Shown here: positions 1,555 through 60,057 of the stretch, piece by piece
Layout: each line of letters starts with the position of its first letter
Position numbering within the stretch: position 1 is the first letter of the stretch
NCBI GenBank assembly: GCA_023485845.1
Contig: JAMCZE010000010.1
Location: forward strand, 156,046 to 220,045
Source of the DNA: Patescibacteria group bacterium
GTDB taxonomy: Bacteria; Patescibacteriota; Microgenomatia; JAMCZE01
Direction of reading: 5' to 3'
Length of the DNA: 64,000 nt
Made by a program: the position numbers and the translations under genes
The notes under the pieces: generated by a model
Seen by the model: only the letters and a program-made list of their open reading frames with translations
The model's database searches: none
Told to the model about the DNA's origin: nothing

Positions 1555-2099
1555 GTGACACTCCTCGCAGCAAGCTGCGAGGCATCTGCATTGCTAAAAT
1601 AGCCTGAGTTGGTCTTTTGATATTTGGACATAGTCTTTTGGTCTTCCTTGGTTTCTGATGTACTTTTGGATGACTGTCTCAGAATTGCTTCGTCCTACTG
1701 AATTTACGAAATACCCGTCAGTCCAAAACTGGGCTCCCCAAAGGCTTTCCCTCAACCCGGCAACTCGTTTGAGAAGTTCCCGGGCCAGGATACTTTTGAC
1801 CGTTCTGGCAATTTTGGTAGGAGAATATGTAGGCACTGACTGGATCAAAAAATGGACATGATCACCGTCGGCCCCAATCTCCACAAAATGCATCTCGTAC
1901 CTTTGGGAAATTTCCTGACAGATCTGTTTTAGTTGGGCATCCACCTCTGTCGAGATCACGAGTTGCCTTCCCTTGGCCACACAAACCAGATGGTACAAAA
2001 GCACCGAGACATTGTGCGCTTTGTGTATGTAGATACTCACGCATACAATTTTACCCTCTCGCGGCAAAGCCGCGGGGAATGAACCCTAAAAGAGATTCA
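1555..2099 (-). mobile_element. IS200/IS605-family insertion sequence, copy 1 (545 bp)
   Basis: Identical at every position to the 545-bp blocks at 17333-17877 and 18381-18925. It has subterminal hairpins (ctcgcagcaagctgcgag at one end, ccgcggcaaagccgcgg at the other) and no terminal inverted repeats, as expected for IS200. Confidence 0.85.
1594..2067 (-). CDS. tnpA: IS200-like Y1 (HUH) transposase TnpA
   Basis: 157 aa. HUH motif DHVHFLI and a downstream catalytic Tyr region (SVPTYSPTKIARTVKS). Typical IS200 TnpA size. Confidence 0.9.
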   Translation of the reverse strand: MPREGKIVCVSIYIHKAHNVSVLLYHLVCVAKGRQLVISTEVDAQLKQICQEISQRYEMHFVEIGADGDHVHFLIQSVPTYSPTKIARTVKSILARELLKRVAGLRESLWGAQFWTDGYFVNSVGRSNSETVIQKYIRNQGRPKDYVQISKDQLRLF

Positions 2100-2329
2100 A
2101 CTGTACCAAAAATGTTTAAATGTCCATTTTTATAAAAATTAACAACATTGTTCGCTTCACCATAAGTAAACTTGGGAAATAAATATGGTACAGACGTAAT
2201 CCCCGCCTTTCTCCTAACATCTGCAATATCAATTAAGAAACTTTCCTGGTCTACAAGGCGAGCAACCAAGCGAGCTTTATTTTCATCATCCCTGATGTCA
2301 ATATAAATTAACTGGGTGCACATATTCAT
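2051..2329 (-). pseudogene. 5' portion of a gene interrupted by IS200 copy 1; only 2100-2329 is native sequence
   Basis: The ORF reads from native DNA into the IS end at 2099. The final 16 codons are IS-derived. The native part has a vague thioredoxin-fold flavour (VNFYKNGH) but no CXXC motif. Confidence 0.35.
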
Positions 2330-2355
2330 CTTTATTTATATTTTTAAATTATCTT

Positions 2356-2724
2356 TTAAACATTCATTTCTAACATGCCCTTGAACCTCTGCTTCCGGTA
2401 TTTCAGGTTCAGGCACTTTCGACAACCAATTAAACTATTTACTATGTGCCGGTATATTACTCCCACTCGACGGGAGCACCTAGGACATATGAACCAAAAT
2501 CTCTCGCCGTCAAATTTGGTCTTTGAGGTTGTTAGCTTAATTTGAACCCCTAAGACATCCGTGTTTGCTGTTAAAAACAGCTTCTTAAACTCCTTATTTG
2601 CCAGTCTTGTCAACTCGTCAACTGACAATTTTTCGGATAACTCAACGAGCTGTAAAGTTCCTAAATCGTATGGGCTTATTAAATTATTCATGGTTATTTG
2701 CTTGTACAATCTGGTTTTGTCCAA
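2356..2724 (-). CDS. zinc-ribbon protein (CPRC...CRKC), function unknown
   Basis: 122-aa ORF with four Cys in two CxxC pairs near the C-terminus. Confidence 0.4.
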   Translation of the reverse strand: MDKTRLYKQITMNNLISPYDLGTLQLVELSEKLSVDELTRLANKEFKKLFLTANTDVLGVQIKLTTSKTKFDGERFWFICPRCSRRVGVIYRHIVNSLIGCRKCLNLKYRKQRFKGMLEMNV

Positions 2725-3301
2725 CTACCGCTGTCTCCGTCTTGATATTGACCTGCATAGTTGGCTGTCGCATAGTTTTTAGGGCCTGCATGGATGCTAG
2801 AAAGTGCCTATTTGCCCTGTCTAGTTCTTGGCCTAATACCTCTAAAAATCTTATATCTATCTTTGAAAGCCCTTCCTCCCTCGATAAGATACTATTTATT
2901 CTTTGTTGAGTTTGCATTGCCCTAACGAGATTTATTGCTGCTATTTCAGCGAGGGCGTTCTCACTTGGGGTTTTACAATCAAATTCGGCTCGGAGCTTTT
3001 GAAAGTAATCAAGCGCGAAGGTTCGAAAGAGATCAGAAACGGAGTTCCCTAACAATAGTCCCCTATCAAATTCAAAGACCGTCAGTGCTTTATAGAAATT
3101 ACTTTCTGGTTTTAATGGCCCAGCTTTTTGACCAATCTCCTTAATTCCTTCTTGTAGGACATGTTTTGGGTCGATGCTCAATTCAAGTTCTAGAAGGGAT
3201 TTTCTAATTTCATCAAATGTTTTTACTGGCACAACTGCTTTTTTCTTCATACCGCATTGTAATGCCCCGTTATATGTTATTGTCAAGTTAATTGAAACCA
3301 A
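2684..3301 (-). CDS. hypothetical protein (about 190-205 aa)
   Basis: ORF present. The start may be the internal Met (MKKKAVV...). No motif recognised. Confidence 0.4.
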   Translation of the reverse strand: MVSINLTITYNGALQCGMKKKAVVPVKTFDEIRKSLLELELSIDPKHVLQEGIKEIGQKAGPLKPESNFYKALTVFEFDRGLLLGNSVSDLFRTFALDYFQKLRAEFDCKTPSENALAEIAAINLVRAMQTQQRINSILSREEGLSKIDIRFLEVLGQELDRANRHFLASMQALKTMRQPTMQVNIKTETAVVGQNQIVQANNHE

Positions 3302-3319
3302 GGAAGTAACCAGAAAGCT

Positions 3320-7984: not shown

Positions 7985-8518
7985 ATGGATAATACATACG
8001 AGGCTGTAAGGCGTGTATTAAATGCACTAAACATAGATCAAAGCCAAAGAGATCAAGCGGAGTTATATGGAAAAATACGAAGGAAAGAAATTTCTTTGGA
8101 TGAATTTTTTGTTGTGCAAAAGCGATTGGATTTATCGATGATTAGCAAATCTACACCGTTTTCATGGAAAGATCTACTAAGAGAAAACGTTGATACCTAT
8201 AATCACGAAAGACGACATGAGGCTGTCTGGTACAAATATGGTGTAAAGACAAATTTGTTTAATTGGAACATACACCCTGACGCGTATTTTGTAATGGATT
8301 TGGATTTTCCAGAGGTTACAAAAACAAATGGCTTTAATGTCGACAAAGTAATCTCAATCTACAAAGAAATGTTGTCAGCTTCTTTCAAAAATCAAAACCA
8401 AATTACAAACTCTTACCTGATGGATGTGTTTTTCTTCGAAGTTTTGGACAAATTAGATGATTTTCGAGCAAACAGTATTTACGAGGTTTTCAAAAAGTAT
8501 AATTGGCAATACCCATAA
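7985..8518 (+). CDS. hypothetical protein (177 aa)
   Basis: ORF 5 bp downstream of the previous gene. No motif recognised. Confidence 0.4.
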   Translation: MDNTYEAVRRVLNALNIDQSQRDQAELYGKIRRKEISLDEFFVVQKRLDLSMISKSTPFSWKDLLRENVDTYNHERRHEAVWYKYGVKTNLFNWNIHPDAYFVMDLDFPEVTKTNGFNVDKVISIYKEMLSASFKNQNQITNSYLMDVFFFEVLDKLDDFRANSIYEVFKKYNWQYP

Positions 8519-8960: not shown

Positions 8961-9120
8961 TAATTTCATTTGAAGATTTTGAACGTAAAAAGTTTGAATG
9001 TGTTCCATCCGGGGCTGCTAAGAATAGTCTAGAGCGTATTGACGGCCTTAATTATGGCGTGACTGACAACAGGAACTTTGAAGAGTATTTGATCGGTGGT
9101 GCTATTCCCCACTCAACTCC

Positions 9121-9522: not shown

Positions 9523-9820
9523 ATTTATTATTTATGACCCGCCGATGTGTTGCTCAACCGGTGTCTGCGGACCCAACCCTGATCAATCCCTGATAAAACT
9601 GCAGGATACTCTGGCAGCCCTTAAAAAGTCCGGTTATGAGGTGGAAAGGTATCTTATCACCCAATCCCCGGAGAAATTCAAAGAAAATCCGGAAGTAATA
9701 AAACTAATTCAGGAACAACAATTAAAAGTCCTGCCAATTACTACCATGGACGGGGTAATTGTGAAGACCGGCGGTTATCCGGCATTGGAAGAATTTAAAA
9801 AGTTTGCTGAGAGCAAATAA
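9512..9820 (+). CDS. arsD: ArsD arsenic metallochaperone/repressor
   Basis: N-terminal MCCSTGVCG (vicinal Cys12-Cys13 plus Cys18 signature). About 100 aa. Sits between arsR and arsA. Confidence 0.85.
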   Translation: MQPKFIIYDPPMCCSTGVCGPNPDQSLIKLQDTLAALKKSGYEVERYLITQSPEKFKENPEVIKLIQEQQLKVLPITTMDGVIVKTGGYPALEEFKKFAESK

Positions 9821-32948: not shown

Positions 32949-33711
32949 GAATTGCGTGGCCGGTGAGGGTCAGGAAAGCATCCTCCATGGAAGTCTTTTT
33001 TGTCTGTTTTTTCAGCTGGGCGGGGGTGCCGGCAGCAATAATCTTGCCGTGGTCCATAATCGCCACCTTGCCTGCCGGCAGGCAGGCCCGCTCGGCCTCG
33101 TCCATATAATGCGTTGTGAAGAACACGGTGATGTTTTCTGTTTTATTCAAATTTTTGATGTACTCCCAAATATGATTGCGCGTCTGTGGGTCCAGTCCTT
33201 GGGTTGGCTCGTCCAGAAAGAAAATCTTCGGATGATGAAGCAGGCCGCGAGCAATCTCTAACCGCCGCTTCATTCCCCCGGAAAAGTTTTTCACTAAATC
33301 ATTGCGCCGCTCCCAAAGTTCAACAAATTTTAAAAGTTCCTCGGCTCTTTTGCGACCCAGGTCGCGCGGGACACCATAAAGCACTCCATGAAACTCCAGG
33401 TTTTCCCAGGCCGTCAGCTCGTCATCCAGGCTGGGATCCTGAAAAACAATGCCGAAAGCCCGGCGGACTGCCTCCTGGTCGGTCGCCGGGTCGGCGCCAT
33501 TAATTTCAATCCTGCCCGATGTCGGCGCCAAAAGGGTGGTCAGCATTTTAATCGTCGTGGTCTTGCCCGCCCCGTTGGGCCCCAAAAACGCGAAAATCTC
33601 CCCGGCGGCCACATCAAAAGAAATGTTGTCCACCGCCAGAAAATTATTGAACTTTTTTGTCAACCCGGAAACTTTAATCATGAAAGTTATGCTATCATTG
33701 GACGATGCCAA
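32881..33711 (-). CDS. ABC transporter ATP-binding protein
   Basis: Walker A GPNGAGKTT, signature LSGGMKRRLEIARGL, Walker B IFFLDEPTQGLD. Confidence 0.9.
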   Translation of the reverse strand: MASSNDSITFMIKVSGLTKKFNNFLAVDNISFDVAAGEIFAFLGPNGAGKTTTIKMLTTLLAPTSGRIEINGADPATDQEAVRRAFGIVFQDPSLDDELTAWENLEFHGVLYGVPRDLGRKRAEELLKFVELWERRNDLVKNFSGGMKRRLEIARGLLHHPKIFFLDEPTQGLDPQTRNHIWEYIKNLNKTENITVFFTTHYMDEAERACLPAGKVAIMDHGKIIAAGTPAQLKKQTKKTSMEDAFLTLTGHAIRDEEAGAIDHLRAGARMWGRRR

Positions 33712-34727
33712 AATACAAGCCGGAGATTGACATCCTCAAAGCGACCGCCATTATCGCCGTGGTTTTGATTCACGTCAGCGCCGCCTATATGGCCCACGGC
33801 TACGATCTAATTAACCTGACAGTCAACCAGGCCGCCCGTTTTGCAGTCCCTGTTTTTGTTGCTCTGTCCAGTTTTGGCTTGGCCGGTAAATACCTAGCAA
33901 CTAAGCTGGAGTTGAAAGATTTCTTCGTCCGTCGGGCCCTGCGGCTTTTACCCTGGTTTTTCTTCTGGGAGGTCATCATTTTTGTCACCGTCACCTATGT
34001 TTTGCGCCAAAGCTGGATTCTTTATGACGGGCTGCCATTATGGAAAATTTTTATACTCGGAAAGGCCGATTATCACCTCTATTTCGTGCCAATGATCTTC
34101 GTTCTTTATCTGTTTTTTCCGATATTATTGCAATTTATTAAACGCTTTCCAAAGCTGACCTTGCTAGCTGCTTTTCTGTTTCAAATTTACTGGTATTGGC
34201 AAATCACGACCCAAACCGAACTGCTTTCCAACCGCAATAATGTCTGGACGGACCAAATGCAATATCTCAACCCCCTCACCTGGATTTTTTACTTCGTTTT
34301 CGGCATGTTTTTAGCTCGTGCTAAAAGCTACAAGCTACAAGCTATTAGCCTAGTTGCTTTGTTAGTTGGTCTTGTCTGGACTGTTGCCAGTTCTGGTTAT
34401 CTGATGTCGTCTGGTTTTGAGATCACCGTCGCCACCCGTTTCACCCGCTTCCCGGTCCTACTCTACTCGATTGGGGTAATCTTGTCTGGCCTTCTCGTCT
34501 TACCTTCTCTCCCGCTTACCCGCTTACCCACTTTCCTCACCCGTCTTGGTAAATTATCGTTATTGGTTTATCTCTGCCACACCCTCGTTCTTCGCGCTGT
34601 GCCGCTAACCTTTCCCGAACCGATAGTCTTTATTTTAGTTTTGGCCGGCAGTTATCTCATCGCTGAAGTTTGCTCCCACATTAGCTTCAAGAGACCACCT
34701 CTCGTGAAGCTACTTGCAAAAAACTGA
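33705..34727 (+). CDS. acyltransferase-3 (OafA-like) family membrane acyltransferase
   Basis: N-terminal IDILKATAIIAVVLIHV motif plus about 10 TM segments. Confidence 0.75.
   Translation: MPKYKPEIDILKATAIIAVVLIHVSAAYMAHGYDLINLTVNQAARFAVPVFVALSSFGLAGKYLATKLELKDFFVRRALRLLPWFFFWEVIIFVTVTYVLRQSWILYDGLPLWKIFILGKADYHLYFVPMIFVLYLFFPILLQFIKRFPKLTLLAAFLFQIYWYWQITTQTELLSNRNNVWTDQMQYLNPLTWIFYFVFGMFLARAKSYKLQAISLVALLVGLVWTVASSGYLMSSGFEITVATRFTRFPVLLYSIGVILSGLLVLPSLPLTRLPTFLTRLGKLSLLVYLCHTLVLRAVPLTFPEPIVFILVLAGSYLIAEVCSHISFKRPPLVKLLAKN
34682..34712 (+). repeat. 31-bp hairpin-containing repeat tagcttcaagagaccacctctcgtgaagcta (left flank of the RAYT gene)
   Basis: Identical to 35408-35438. Contains the imperfect palindrome cttcaagaga-ccacc-tctcgtgaag. 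Confidence 0.8.
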
Positions 34728-34747
34728 GAATCAACTATGATTAAACC

Positions 34748-35410
34748 ATGGCGGCCAAAAACTCGATCAAGGCTTACATCCCTGATGGCTACTACCATTT
34801 ATATAATCGTGGGGTTGCTAAAAATGATATTTACCACGATGAAGTTGACTACGCAGTTTTCTTATCCTATTTAAAAGCCTATTTGCTCCCCAAAGACGAA
34901 GAAAAACTACTAGCTATTGTTGCTTCTCCCCAGGCTAGTTATAAGGAAAAGTATCAGGCAACGAAGCTACTGAACTTAAAAAATTTCTGCGGGGAAATAA
35001 CCTTGCTGGCCTATGCTCTCATGCCTAATCATTTCCATTTGTTAATCAAGCAAAAATCGGCCAGCACAATCGATAATTTTATGAATGCGTTGGGCACCAG
35101 ATATGCTGGTTTCTTTAATCGCAAATATCATCGGGTGGGGCCGTTATTCCAGGGGGTTTACAAAGCCGTTCCGATCCAAACCGAAGAACAACTACTCCAT
35201 GTCTCCCGATATATTCACTTAAACCCTAAGGGACAAGGAAATCTGCCCACTTCTCTACCAGAATATCTTGGCCAACGCGACACCGCTTGGGTAAATAGCA
35301 GTGACATCTTGCACCACTTTAACAAGAAAAGTCAAAATAACTCTTATATTGATTTTATGAAAGCCGTTCCCGACTTGACCACAATTCCCCAACTATTAAT
35401 CGACCTTTAG
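34748..35410 (+). CDS. IS200-like/REP-associated Y1 (HUH) transposase (RAYT-type)
   Basis: N-terminal YHLYNRG, HUH motif MPNHFHLLI, catalytic Tyr region GPLFQGVYKAV. 220 aa. AT-rich. Confidence 0.75.
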   Translation: MAAKNSIKAYIPDGYYHLYNRGVAKNDIYHDEVDYAVFLSYLKAYLLPKDEEKLLAIVASPQASYKEKYQATKLLNLKNFCGEITLLAYALMPNHFHLLIKQKSASTIDNFMNALGTRYAGFFNRKYHRVGPLFQGVYKAVPIQTEEQLLHVSRYIHLNPKGQGNLPTSLPEYLGQRDTAWVNSSDILHHFNKKSQNNSYIDFMKAVPDLTTIPQLLIDL

Positions 35411-35438
35411 CTTCAAGAGACCACCTCTCGTGAAGCTA
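35408..35438 (+). repeat. 31-bp hairpin-containing repeat (right flank of the RAYT gene)
   Basis: Identical to 34682-34712. Confidence 0.8.
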
Positions 35439-35457
35439 ATCGCGGAGACATCCAGTG

Positions 35458-36144
35458 CTACTGGCGCAGCTCTTCGGAGACTTGCTCGATCCGTTGCCGA
35501 ACCTGGGCATTTCGAAAACTCCCTTTAGTCGCCCACCAACCAGTGGCACCGCCAAAGGCCAAACCGGTCAACAAGATGTAATTTTGGACATTACCATCAG
35601 TCGTTTTCCCAGCAAAGTCTAATGCCAGCCCAGCAAGCCCACCGCCCAAAAAGCTGAGAGCCTTGTTTTTTAGGCCTTCTTGGCTAGTAATGTCTGGATG
35701 GCCCAAAACCTCAACCGACTTTTCCAATTGAAGTAGAGAGCCGAGAACACCACCAACCAAGCCACTGGTGAAATATTGGTGACTGCCATTAATAAGGTCA
35801 GCAGATTTGAGAACTATAACAATTCCGGCGCCAAGAAGAAATTTTTCCACCAAAGAACGATCGAACTTCCACTTTTCCCCCCTCAGATAAATAAGGCTTG
35901 CCAGGCCACCGAGCGCAATATTGCCCAGGTCCGTTTCCACTGCCGCTTTGATAAGGGTAAGAGTAGTATTAACCCCCAAATTTCCAGCGTTGCCAGCAAC
36001 ACTCGCCACATCGGGGGCATTGCAGCCGGTCAGAGCCAGGGCACCCAAAATCAACGCCGAGGCAGCGACCACCTTCGGATCAATTTTAATCCCCCGCTTT
36101 TTTTCCGCCGTCTTCTCACCATTACTATAGTCTATTTCTTTCAT
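35458..36144 (-). CDS. glycine-rich membrane protein, unknown function
   Basis: ORF with several Gly/Ala-rich hydrophobic segments. Confidence 0.4.
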   Translation of the reverse strand: MKEIDYSNGEKTAEKKRGIKIDPKVVAASALILGALALTGCNAPDVASVAGNAGNLGVNTTLTLIKAAVETDLGNIALGGLASLIYLRGEKWKFDRSLVEKFLLGAGIVIVLKSADLINGSHQYFTSGLVGGVLGSLLQLEKSVEVLGHPDITSQEGLKNKALSFLGGGLAGLALDFAGKTTDGNVQNYILLTGLAFGGATGWWATKGSFRNAQVRQRIEQVSEELRQ

Positions 36145-58267: not shown

Positions 58268-58450
58268 TTAACCTTCTTTTGTCTCTGGGCGATTCCTTTT
58301 TTCTCGAGCCCGCCTCTCCACTTCCTCCGCTAACCGCCGGTTAGCTTCTTGTTGCAGTTGGGTCACGTCGCCACGATCAGCTGCCTTTTGTTCCTGCTGT
58401 CTGATCTGTGCTTCTTTAAGTCTTTTTGTTAGTGGTCCAGCCATCATCAC
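58268..58450 (-). CDS. small charged hypothetical protein
   Basis: ORF only. Confidence 0.3.
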   Translation of the reverse strand: MMMAGPLTKRLKEAQIRQQEQKAADRGDVTQLQQEANRRLAEEVERRAREKRNRPETKEG

Positions 58451-60057
58451 ATCCTTTCCAAGGCTTCGATGCCCAAAAGATTTAAGCCGTTTTTTAAAAC
58501 ATCCGCTGTCGTCGCGGTCAATTTCAACCGCAAATCATTGCCCAAAATCGGGCAATTGTTATAGAAATTATTATAGCGCTTCGCCAGTTCAAATAAATAG
58601 GAACAGACTAAATTTGGGGCATATTGCCTAGCCGCCGCCTCCACCACCTCGGGAAAACGGTAGAGATAGCGCAAAAGAGCCAGTTCTTCATTAGTTAGTT
58701 CTCCCGTGATTTTTGCCTTTTGATTTTTGCCTTTTGATTTGCGAAGTACGCTCTGCGCACGAGCAAACGTGTATTGCAAATACGGCCCCGAGTCACCCTG
58801 CAGTTCAAACATTTTCTCCCAATCAAAAACAATGTCGCTTTGGACACCATGTTTTAAGTCAAAATATTTAATCGCCCCAATCCCCACAGCCTGGGCAGCT
58901 TCCTGACTGCCCAATTTAGCCGCCCTGGCAATCGCCTCCTGTAAGATGCCTTCCAATTTTGGTGTGTTTCCTTCTCTGGTCCGGAATCGGCCGCTGGGCC
59001 AGCGGTACATCCCATGGCGAGTGTGGCACAAAATCGCTCCCTGTTTAACATAGCCCAGTTGTCTTGCCACCGCAAAAACCTGACGAAAATGCAGTTCCTG
59101 ATCAACACCCACTTCATAGATCATTATGTCCGGATTCCACTGTTCTTTACGAAATTTTAACGTGGCCAAATCACGAGTGGCGTAAGTGGTTGCCCCATCG
59201 CTTTTAACCAGCATCAGCGGGATTTTAATGCCGGGAATTTCAACCACTCGGGCGCCATCACTTAACTTGGAAATTTTTTGCGCGTCCATAATCACTGCCG
59301 GCATTTTGTCCTCATAGAAACTTTCCCCATAAGCAAAGTCAATCTTCACACCAAGCAGGTCAAAAATCCGGTTAAATTCTTCCATGGAAACATCCACGCA
59401 CTTTTTCCAAAGATTCCGGGCCTTTTTGTCGCCGTCTTCCAGCCGCTTGAACCAGAATCTGGCGGCCGCTTCCATCTGCGGTGTTGACTGCCGGTGAAAT
59501 TCAACGTACCATTTTTCCAAATCATCAATGGTGAAATCGCCCTTTGCCTTCTCGTTAATCATGTAGAGCAGCTTGCCGAATTGGGTTCCCCAGTCGCCCA
59601 GATGGTTGTCACCGATCACTTTGTAGCCCAATGACTGATAAATGTTATAAAGAGCCTGGCCAATGATCGTGGAGCGCAGATGGCCCACGCCAAAACGGCG
59701 GGCAATGTTAGGAGCCGCATAGTCAATCACCACCGTTTTTCCTTTGCCAATTGGCGCGATCTCAATCTTTTGCGCTGCTTCCATTAACGCTGCTGGGGAC
59801 AAGGTGAAGTTAATAAATCCCGGCCCAGCAACACTAGCTTCAAGAGAGGTGGTCTCTTGAAGCTGGACCACAATTTTTTGTGCCACTTCCCGGGGATGGC
59901 CAGTTTTTAACTTCAGGGCAATGTTTGTGGAATAATCGCGGTGCTCCTGGGCTGTCGGGTGTTCCAGCTCAATATCTTCCGGCTTTAGATTAATTTCCGG
60001 GAAAGCTGTTTTCACAGCTTTTAAAACGGCCTGGCGAATGTCATCGGCAATCATCAT
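58447..60057 (-). CDS. argS: arginyl-tRNA synthetase
   Basis: AGPGFINF, the class I HIGH-type region (APNIARRFGVGHLRST), and overall length. Confidence 0.9.
   Translation of the reverse strand: MMIADDIRQAVLKAVKTAFPEINLKPEDIELEHPTAQEHRDYSTNIALKLKTGHPREVAQKIVVQLQETTSLEASVAGPGFINFTLSPAALMEAAQKIEIAPIGKGKTVVIDYAAPNIARRFGVGHLRSTIIGQALYNIYQSLGYKVIGDNHLGDWGTQFGKLLYMINEKAKGDFTIDDLEKWYVEFHRQSTPQMEAAARFWFKRLEDGDKKARNLWKKCVDVSMEEFNRIFDLLGVKIDFAYGESFYEDKMPAVIMDAQKISKLSDGARVVEIPGIKIPLMLVKSDGATTYATRDLATLKFRKEQWNPDIMIYEVGVDQELHFRQVFAVARQLGYVKQGAILCHTRHGMYRWPSGRFRTREGNTPKLEGILQEAIARAAKLGSQEAAQAVGIGAIKYFDLKHGVQSDIVFDWEKMFELQGDSGPYLQYTFARAQSVLRKSKGKNQKAKITGELTNEELALLRYLYRFPEVVEAAARQYAPNLVCSYLFELAKRYNNFYNNCPILGNDLRLKLTATTADVLKNGLNLLGIEALERM

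Follow-up and report, generated by a model that had tools for sequence, protein, structure and literature searches.

Most of what is known about systems that pair a REP-associated tyrosine transposase (RAYT) with repetitive extragenic palindromic (REP) sequences comes from Proteobacteria, Cyanobacteria and Bacteroidetes. The tyrosine motif distinguishes the class-2 (TnpA_REP-type) enzymes, which carry the signature Y---NP, from the TnpA of IS200 insertion sequences (ISs), in which the signature is Y---Q (Quentin et al. 2018, PMC6006769). Both the REPtron, in which a RAYT gene lies between cognate REPs, and 'double-foot' REPs are already known, and REPs within tRNA-synthetase and other genes have been described (PMC6006769, PMC3733652, PMC5581495). 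The REPs of subclass 2.4 are inserted in frame in the tnpA_REP gene itself as well as in unrelated genes, and atypical REPs without GT[AG]G have been reported for subclasses 2.6 and 3 (PMC6006769). Here we analyse a stretch of 64,000 nucleotides (hereafter, the window) from contig JAMCZE010000010.1 of a Patescibacteria group bacterium, in which a gene for a single-tyrosine (Y1) HUH nuclease is bracketed by two copies of a 31-nt hairpin. We conclude that this unit is probably a REPtron; that is, a low-copy chromosomal RAYT-like nuclease of the class-2 TnpA_Y1 type together with two cognate REP-like hairpins. The parts of the unit, and a further hairpin copy in the window, are as follows.

34682–34712, + strand: left (upstream) hairpin; exact match to the repeat, single-stranded DNA (ssDNA) fold with z of −4.7, hairpin covariance model 37.6 bits.
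34714–34741, + strand: putative sigma-70-like promoter TTGCAA-16-TATGAT, found by a consensus scan; its 3′ end is 6 nt before the ATG.
34748–35410, + strand: Y1 HUH nuclease gene (RAYT-like), 220 aa; identified by Pfam Y1_Tnp, motifs, alignment and an AlphaFold2 model.
35408–35438, + strand: right (downstream) hairpin; exact match, ssDNA fold and covariance model; the Y1 gene stops at the TAG that forms its first three bases.
59835–59865, − strand: third, solitary hairpin inside argS; 29/31 identical, encodes QLQETTSLEA; ssDNA fold and covariance model.

The Y1 gene is the only open reading frame (ORF) between the two flanking hairpins. Its product scores 36 bits against Pfam Y1_Tnp (cutoff of 23), which bears out the membership in the RAYT/IS200 superfamily that an initial annotation, made from the sequence alone, had proposed. 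More than 7,800 homologs were found, nearly all in Microgenomates/Patescibacteria, and most of them are 45–66% identical to the window protein and 220–235 aa in length. In an alignment of homologs, YH.YNRG (YHLYNRG in the window), N94-H95-x-H97 (the HuH motif) and Y155-x-H157 within YIHLNP are invariant, and a C-terminal extension of about 60 aa is conserved. YIHLNP occupies residues 155–160 of the window protein and agrees with the class-2 signature Y---NP. We assign Y155 as the putative catalytic tyrosine because the catalytic-tyrosine motif of ISDra2, YIESQ, aligns with YIHLN in matches to the PDB. A sequence search of the PDB returned weak matches to ISDra2 TnpA alone (E = 0.02). Foldseek comparison of the AlphaFold2 model (pLDDT of 86, pTM of 0.84) gave 4er8_A, the Escherichia coli TnpA_REP bound to a REP hairpin, as the best match (E = 1 × 10−5), followed by the ISDra2, IS200 and IS608 transposases; the relationship to TnpA_REP is therefore visible by fold comparison and not by the PDB sequence search. 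The window has a single copy of the Y1 gene. A possible second gene at around 13.5 kb was rejected, as it was a weak tblastn match inside a 392-aa ORF that, judged by eye, we take to resemble a class-III aminotransferase.

The 31-mer (TAGCTTCAAGAGACCACCTCTCGTGAAGCTA) is present at the two flanks in exact copies, both on the + strand and in direct orientation, as the initial annotation had reported. No match with three or fewer mismatches occurred in 100 dinucleotide-preserving shuffles. The exact repeat extends to 32 nt, with one extra shared T on the 5′ side, and a repeat search gave 37 nt at 95%. The CCACC loop and the single mismatch had been annotated correctly, but the stem is 13 bp (TAGCTTCAAGAGA / TCTCGTGAAGCTA, with one A·G mismatch) rather than 10 bp. 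Folded as ssDNA, the 31-mer reaches −9.9 to −12.2 kcal/mol (z of about −4.5 to −4.7). A search for more copies, which had been recommended, recovered the solitary hairpin in argS that the first reading had missed. This copy carries two changes: T1>C, which removes a would-be in-frame TAG, and G23>T, by which the formerly mismatched stem pair becomes perfect. When the window was scanned more loosely, with as many as 10 mismatches or with one arm at a time, nothing beyond the three copies came up.

The protein has the fold and motifs of a Y1 HUH nuclease, and the hairpin–gene–hairpin layout, with covarying stems, is conserved in its Microgenomates/Patescibacteria family. We examined the 80 best homolog loci from species-representative genomes (Microgenomates/Patescibacteria metagenome-assembled genomes (MAGs); Y1 identity to the window protein of up to 62%). 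At the three homolog loci that we inspected first (L002, L003 and L005), the Y1 gene lies between a direct pair of approximately 31-nt hairpins with a spacing of 715–760 nt, the TAG of the downstream hairpin is the stop codon, and the stem sequences vary between loci with pairing kept. At about 41 of the 80 loci, the sequence around the stop codon and a site ahead of the ATG are at least 22/31 identical. A strict scan for 13+5+13 hairpins identified a downstream copy at 29 loci, an upstream copy at 33 and both at 18, compared with 7 of 226 background windows, and the hairpin begins with the TAG stop codon at 16 loci. Covariation was measured on 26 hairpins that were hand-picked by eye, a selection with which the result has to be read: both sides have changed in 7 of the 13 stem pairs, 91.7% of cells are paired, and the covariation score was matched by none of 500 shuffles nor by any slid register. 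Across 88 sites, the consensus reads t-TAGCcTCgcAAGG-N5-CCTTGCGAgGcTA-a, with no conservation further out. Clean pairs (n = 17) are direct in 13 cases, inverted in none and ambiguous in 4. Some degraded upstream copies have a reverse-complemented loop (L030, L047, L067, L010 and L040); an inverted-flank layout, as in REP doublets forming hairpins (REPINs), was rejected, as it is confined to these few degraded copies and the clean pairs are direct. The ssDNA fold and the family-wide layout uphold the earlier view of the flanking 31-mers as hairpins of the ssDNA type and as part of the Y1 system; the suggestion that the direct repeats are a by-product of insertion is contradicted by the presence of the same layout across homolog loci. 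Many contigs among L008–L083 are titled 'uncultured Gammaproteobacteria bacterium' or 'Dehalococcoidia', labels that are probably placeholders or the result of mis-binning.

The conserved layout includes the start of the gene. At 72 homolog loci, the upstream consensus has cTTg..a at about −36 and tAt..T at −13 to −8 relative to the Y1 ATG. Because the putative promoter of the window ends 6 nt before the ATG, and the homologs have the same −35/−10 geometry, the arrangement suggests that the Y1 mRNA is leaderless and starts at 34748. The predicted promoter borders on the 3′ arm of the upstream hairpin or extends into it. At many loci the −35 TTG is inside this arm and the gap between hairpin and ATG is 24 nt; in the window, the −35 box is just past the hairpin and the gap is 35 nt. 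Given this position of the upstream hairpin at the −35 box, binding of the hairpin could autoregulate the Y1 promoter, although this is speculative.

Hairpins also occur away from the flanks. The hairpin covariance model, run over 1.2 Mb of homolog loci, detected three classes of site: the Y1 flanks, sites inside the Y1 ORF and about 20 solitary copies that are kilobases away. For 12 of 18 solitary copies, identity to the flank of the same locus is 29/31 or higher, and mean identity is 27.2 to the own flank versus 22.5 to other loci. The solitary hairpins are cognate to the Y1 flanks of their own genome, and many are in frame inside conserved genes. In-frame solitary copies were found in the genes for ThrRS, TGT, an IleRS-type anticodon domain and a DUF2298 protein, in interdomain linkers of peptidase M16 and CarA, and in the transglycosylase domain of PBP1. 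The hairpin occurs in both orientations and within coding regions, where it is read in two frames, as SF(A/K)RxxL(A/V)KL or as (L/Q)(A/L)(S/Q)(Q/E)xxxL(R/E); the second frame requires a change of the leading TAG to CAG, and this change is present.

A scan of metagenomes for the hairpin variant of the window recovered nine contigs. One (L093) has a Y1 gene, the product of which is 62% identical to that of the window, and the other eight have none in the stretch examined; L096 and L091 carry the exact G-mismatch form of the window hairpin in unrelated sequence. The initial annotation had named two findings that would speak against it, absence of the 31-mer from other genomic sites and the same arrangement in relatives as the ancestral state: the 31-mer does occur elsewhere (in argS and on the eight metagenome contigs), and relatives do have the same arrangement. 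L093 has three hairpin copies (8311–8341, 8982–9012 and 9715–9745), two of which bracket its Y1 gene. The third lies about 670 nt past the Y1 stop codon and encloses a 159-aa open frame on the opposite strand.

In 28 of the 80 homologs, the strict scan identified an internal hairpin within the Y1 ORF, approximately 476–512 nt from the ATG. This hairpin corresponds to a variable insert, LASQGEALRG, directly after YIHLNP, and is not in the window protein. Examples are L055 (7036–7066), L082 (2922–2952) and L041 (1290–1320). Within a genome, the internal and the flanking copy are often identical, a sign that homogenisation or re-insertion may be continuing.

How the unit compares with described systems depends on the feature that is considered. 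It shares with E. coli TnpA_REP (RAYT, YafM; 4ER8) the Y1 HUH fold, cognate hairpins that both bracket the gene and are dispersed, low copy number and diverged paralogs. It differs from the E. coli REPtron in having single direct hairpins in place of inverted REP pairs (bacterial interspersed mosaic elements or REPINs), and from E. coli TnpA_REP in the conserved C-terminal domain of about 60 aa. With subclass 2.4 (Bertels group 4; Cyanobacteria/Bacteroidetes) (PMC6006769) it has in common 'double-foot' REPs and the trait of in-frame internal copies, which recurs here in the 28 homologs described above; that subclass has WQ and YIxNNP, compared with FQ and YIHLNP here, and the window protein has no internal copy. 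By motif comparison only, the protein resembles subclass 2.1/TIRYT (Bertels group 1), for which NH[YF]H, FQ, Y[IV]HLNP, an extra C-terminal domain and a protein size of about 238 aa are listed (PMC6006769). Members of subclass 2.1 are reported without REP-like hairpins, and some have terminal inverted repeats, whereas the genes described here have cognate hairpins. Among Rickettsia palindromic elements (RPEs), RPE-1 has a size of 100–150 bp and, to our knowledge, no associated transposase, whereas the repeat described here measures 31 nt (about 100 nt in a composite form at L005) and has a cognate Y1 gene. The hairpins are otherwise similar to RPEs and intragenic REPs, which are in-frame palindromes in conserved genes, including those for tRNA synthetases; such palindromes can face either way, and loops and linkers tolerate them (Di Nocera et al. 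2013, PMC3733652).

We acknowledge that several observations weigh against the identification as a REPtron. Sequence identity to 4ER8 is only 11%, and the score against the NCBIfam model REP_Tyr_transpos (NF047646) is 39.2 bits, below the cutoff of 80. The foot of the hairpin, TTAGC...GCTAA, is not accompanied by the GTAG guide of E. coli, nor does the 88-site consensus contain the canonical 5′ GT[AG]G guide of typical REPs. Solitary copies are sparse: the 64 kb of the window contain 1, and 1.1 Mb of flanking sequence from relatives contain about 20. This density is far below that in classical REP genomes and much lower than in E. coli. The motifs NHFH, FQ and YIHLNP and the C-terminal domain resemble those of subclass 2.1, which is reported as REP-less. 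The hairpin search of the source genome covers the 64-kb window, and the assembly of MAGs may collapse identical repeats and hide IS-like copies.

A further question is whether the unit was inserted into the gene that precedes it.

33705–34727, + strand: Acyl_transf_3 membrane acyltransferase, a neighbour and not a part of the system; Pfam, 132 bits over residues 7–319.

This ORF is read through the 31-mer, as initially annotated, so that the left hairpin encodes the C-terminal tail (I)SFKRPPLVKLLAKN, ending ...ISFKRPPLVKLLAKN. The last transmembrane helix is complete ahead of this tail, which is short and basic. Removal of 726 bp does give a longer ORF of 365 aa, with 25 net extra codons (26 had been stated), but 71 nt of this ORF would be shared with the convergent gene. 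Among acyltransferase homologs, the nearest reach 46% identity, a distance at which there is no empty site at the DNA level; in a C-terminal alignment they end at about equal length. The reconstructed 365-aa state is not obviously ancestral, and comparison with homologs this distant does not demonstrate the 726-bp insertion at the 3′ end of the acyltransferase gene that had been claimed earlier. A distant locus, L097, retains the synteny of acyltransferase ... LytR_C–SecE–NusG–L11–L1. Between its acyltransferase and LytR_C genes (2047–3303) are an Fe/Mn superoxide dismutase gene and a PIN/RHH toxin–antitoxin pair, with no Y1 unit and no hairpin; the corresponding segment of the window (34748–36144) contains the Y1 unit and a gene for a 228-aa membrane protein. 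Because the syntenic segment of L097 is without the unit, there is weak evidence that the Y1 unit may be non-ancestral at this position and that the position is not conserved, and the difference lends weak support to possible mobility of the unit over long time scales.

A reading along the lines of the initial annotation is an autonomous IS200/IS605-like IS, with the 757-bp hairpin–gene–hairpin unit having entered the 3′ end of the acyltransferase gene by single-strand peel-and-paste, an interpretation that we consider unlikely. The unit does share with IS200, IS608 and ISDra2 a Y1 HUH core, a size of about 0.7 kb and, at either end, a subterminal hairpin, both of them on one strand. The direct flanks had been described as differing from IS200 ends, but both end hairpins of IS608 and of ISDra2 are on the same strand, and the clean pairs of relatives, 13 of them direct and none inverted, are in keeping with such ends. 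The unit is found in different gene neighbourhoods between genomes and is missing from L097, several genomes have two or three Y1 paralogs, and the GC content of the Y1 gene (about 41%) is somewhat lower than that of its neighbours, all of which an IS would explain. However, the members of IS200/IS605 have Y---Q, a TnpA of about 150 aa without an extra domain, near-identical multiple copies and often tnpB. Here the motif is Y---NP, the protein of 220 aa has an additional C-terminal domain, and no tnpB accompanies the Y1 gene. Near-identical copies were not observed in the sequence covered: the 64-kb window has one gene, and paralogs within a genome of relatives are 51–65% identical, a divergence that appears unlike that of an IS, although MAGs may collapse repeats. 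Solitary hairpins are far more numerous than IS ends would yield. The acyltransferase homologs, at 46% identity, offer no empty site, and the overlap of the pre-insertion ORF with the convergent gene counts against insertion as well. The Y1 family has no members among viral contigs, which argues against a recent event of this type and on which basis a phage origin of the family was rejected.

Two other explanations concern the hairpins themselves. They could be host regulatory structures (terminators, mRNA stabilisers or protein-binding sites) that were recruited to these sites, with no role of the Y1 protein in their spread. The upstream copy abuts a promoter, the downstream copy follows a stop codon at the position of a terminator, and REPs act as RNA elements in other bacteria (PMC3733652). 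Nevertheless, neither flanking copy is followed by a T-run or called by a terminator scan, so that an intrinsic terminator was rejected, and a known RNA family was rejected in the same way, as an Rfam search gave no match. Moreover, one and the same DNA sequence occurs in either orientation and also within coding regions, where it is read in two frames, and it covaries with the adjacent Y1 gene between genomes, which makes a purely regulatory origin very improbable. The least probable explanation that we considered treats the direct repeats as attL/attR-like, produced when a 726-bp circle with one 31-mer recombined into a chromosomal 31-mer, or by duplication of the target. The copies are indeed direct and 100% identical over 32 nt, and solitary copies are available as possible targets; in relatives, however, the two flanks often differ (22–30 of 31), and the loop is inverted in some of the upstream copies. 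The hairpin keeps a conserved distance to promoter and ATG, and the stop codon is often part of a hairpin, which indicates that the repeats are built into the unit. The Y1 enzyme is also the only recombinase encoded among the genes near the unit. An integron attC site was rejected separately: attC sites are 57–141 bp with the core RYYYAAC...GTTRRRY, the hairpin is 31 nt with the foot TTAGC...GCTAA, and no integrase domain is present among the genes called within 10 kb on each side.

If the unit is a REPtron, its activity may be envisaged by analogy with E. coli TnpA_REP and with the TnpA proteins of IS608 and ISDra2. The Y1 protein would recognise the hairpin when it is folded in ssDNA, at replication forks for instance, and may cut and rejoin at the hairpin foot, so that hairpins would be copied or moved to other places in the genome. 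With both flanking hairpins on one strand, it may be able to mobilise its own gene as well. A more far-reaching proposal, of which we are doubtful, is that the Y1 family represents a still-active link between IS200 and domesticated RAYTs. Same-strand hairpins would move the gene as well as 31-nt 'coding REPs', which would be written into essential genes in frame, at loops and linkers, with the genes for tRNA synthetases and tRNA-modifying enzymes as notable targets; the family would then be a lineage-wide source of peptide insertions in the homologs compared, with a hairpin that also gives its own gene a stop codon and part of a promoter.

The literature that we searched contained no description of RAYT/REP systems in the candidate phyla radiation (CPR)/Patescibacteria. 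The kind of system is known; what sets this member apart is the CPR lineage, the TTAGC...GCTAA foot, the single direct hairpins, the stop codon and part of the promoter that the hairpin often provides, the subclass 2.1-like motifs of the protein, and the high intragenic share. CPR/Patescibacteria genomes generally have few mobile elements and are about 1 Mb in size (two MAG contigs of this analysis are 1.10 and 1.13 Mb). The hairpin sequence is nearly constant across the group that carries the Y1 family, and this near-constancy, together with a family size of more than 7,800 homologs, speaks for a function that is maintained and against transient parasitism. The pair of hairpin and nuclease is compact and could serve for the study of ssDNA hairpin recognition. 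Some of the peptides inserted in frame in essential CPR proteins can be traced to the system, and in annotation the hairpins account for odd C-terminal tails, such as that of the acyltransferase, and for variable loops in conserved genes.

The solitary hairpin of the window lies in argS (58447–60057; TIGR00456, 411 bits), in the part for the N-terminal domain of the encoded ArgRS. The site precedes AGPGFINF and belongs to a stretch whose length differs among homologs. Comparison with the nearest ArgRS homologs (64% identity) revealed no clean net insertion or empty site; because this stretch varies in length among homologs, a net insertion is not demonstrable. At the same site, the ArgRS homolog P0235 (800 aa) has an insertion of about 200 aa. 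Aminoacyl-tRNA synthetase genes account for about 5 of about 14 intragenic hairpin events, with one more in a gene for a tRNA-modifying enzyme; the hosts are ThrRS (L088/L089), the IleRS-type anticodon domain (L090), TGT (L092/L095) and ArgRS (the window and L005). This suggests that the synthetase share exceeds the expectation from gene length, in a small sample and as an idea formed post hoc.

The argS gene of L005 (4588–6411), which is beside a Y1 gene, contains two composites of about 100 nt in opposite orientation, both in frame.

L005, 4851–4953, + strand: composite element in argS.
L005, 6033–6122, − strand: composite element in argS; the two are 96% identical, and their termini are arms of the local Y1 hairpin.

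The composites match exactly insertions of 23–24 aa relative to the window ArgRS. They are similar to miniature inverted-repeat transposable elements, REPINs or RPEs, and were found in the L005/L007 population alone.

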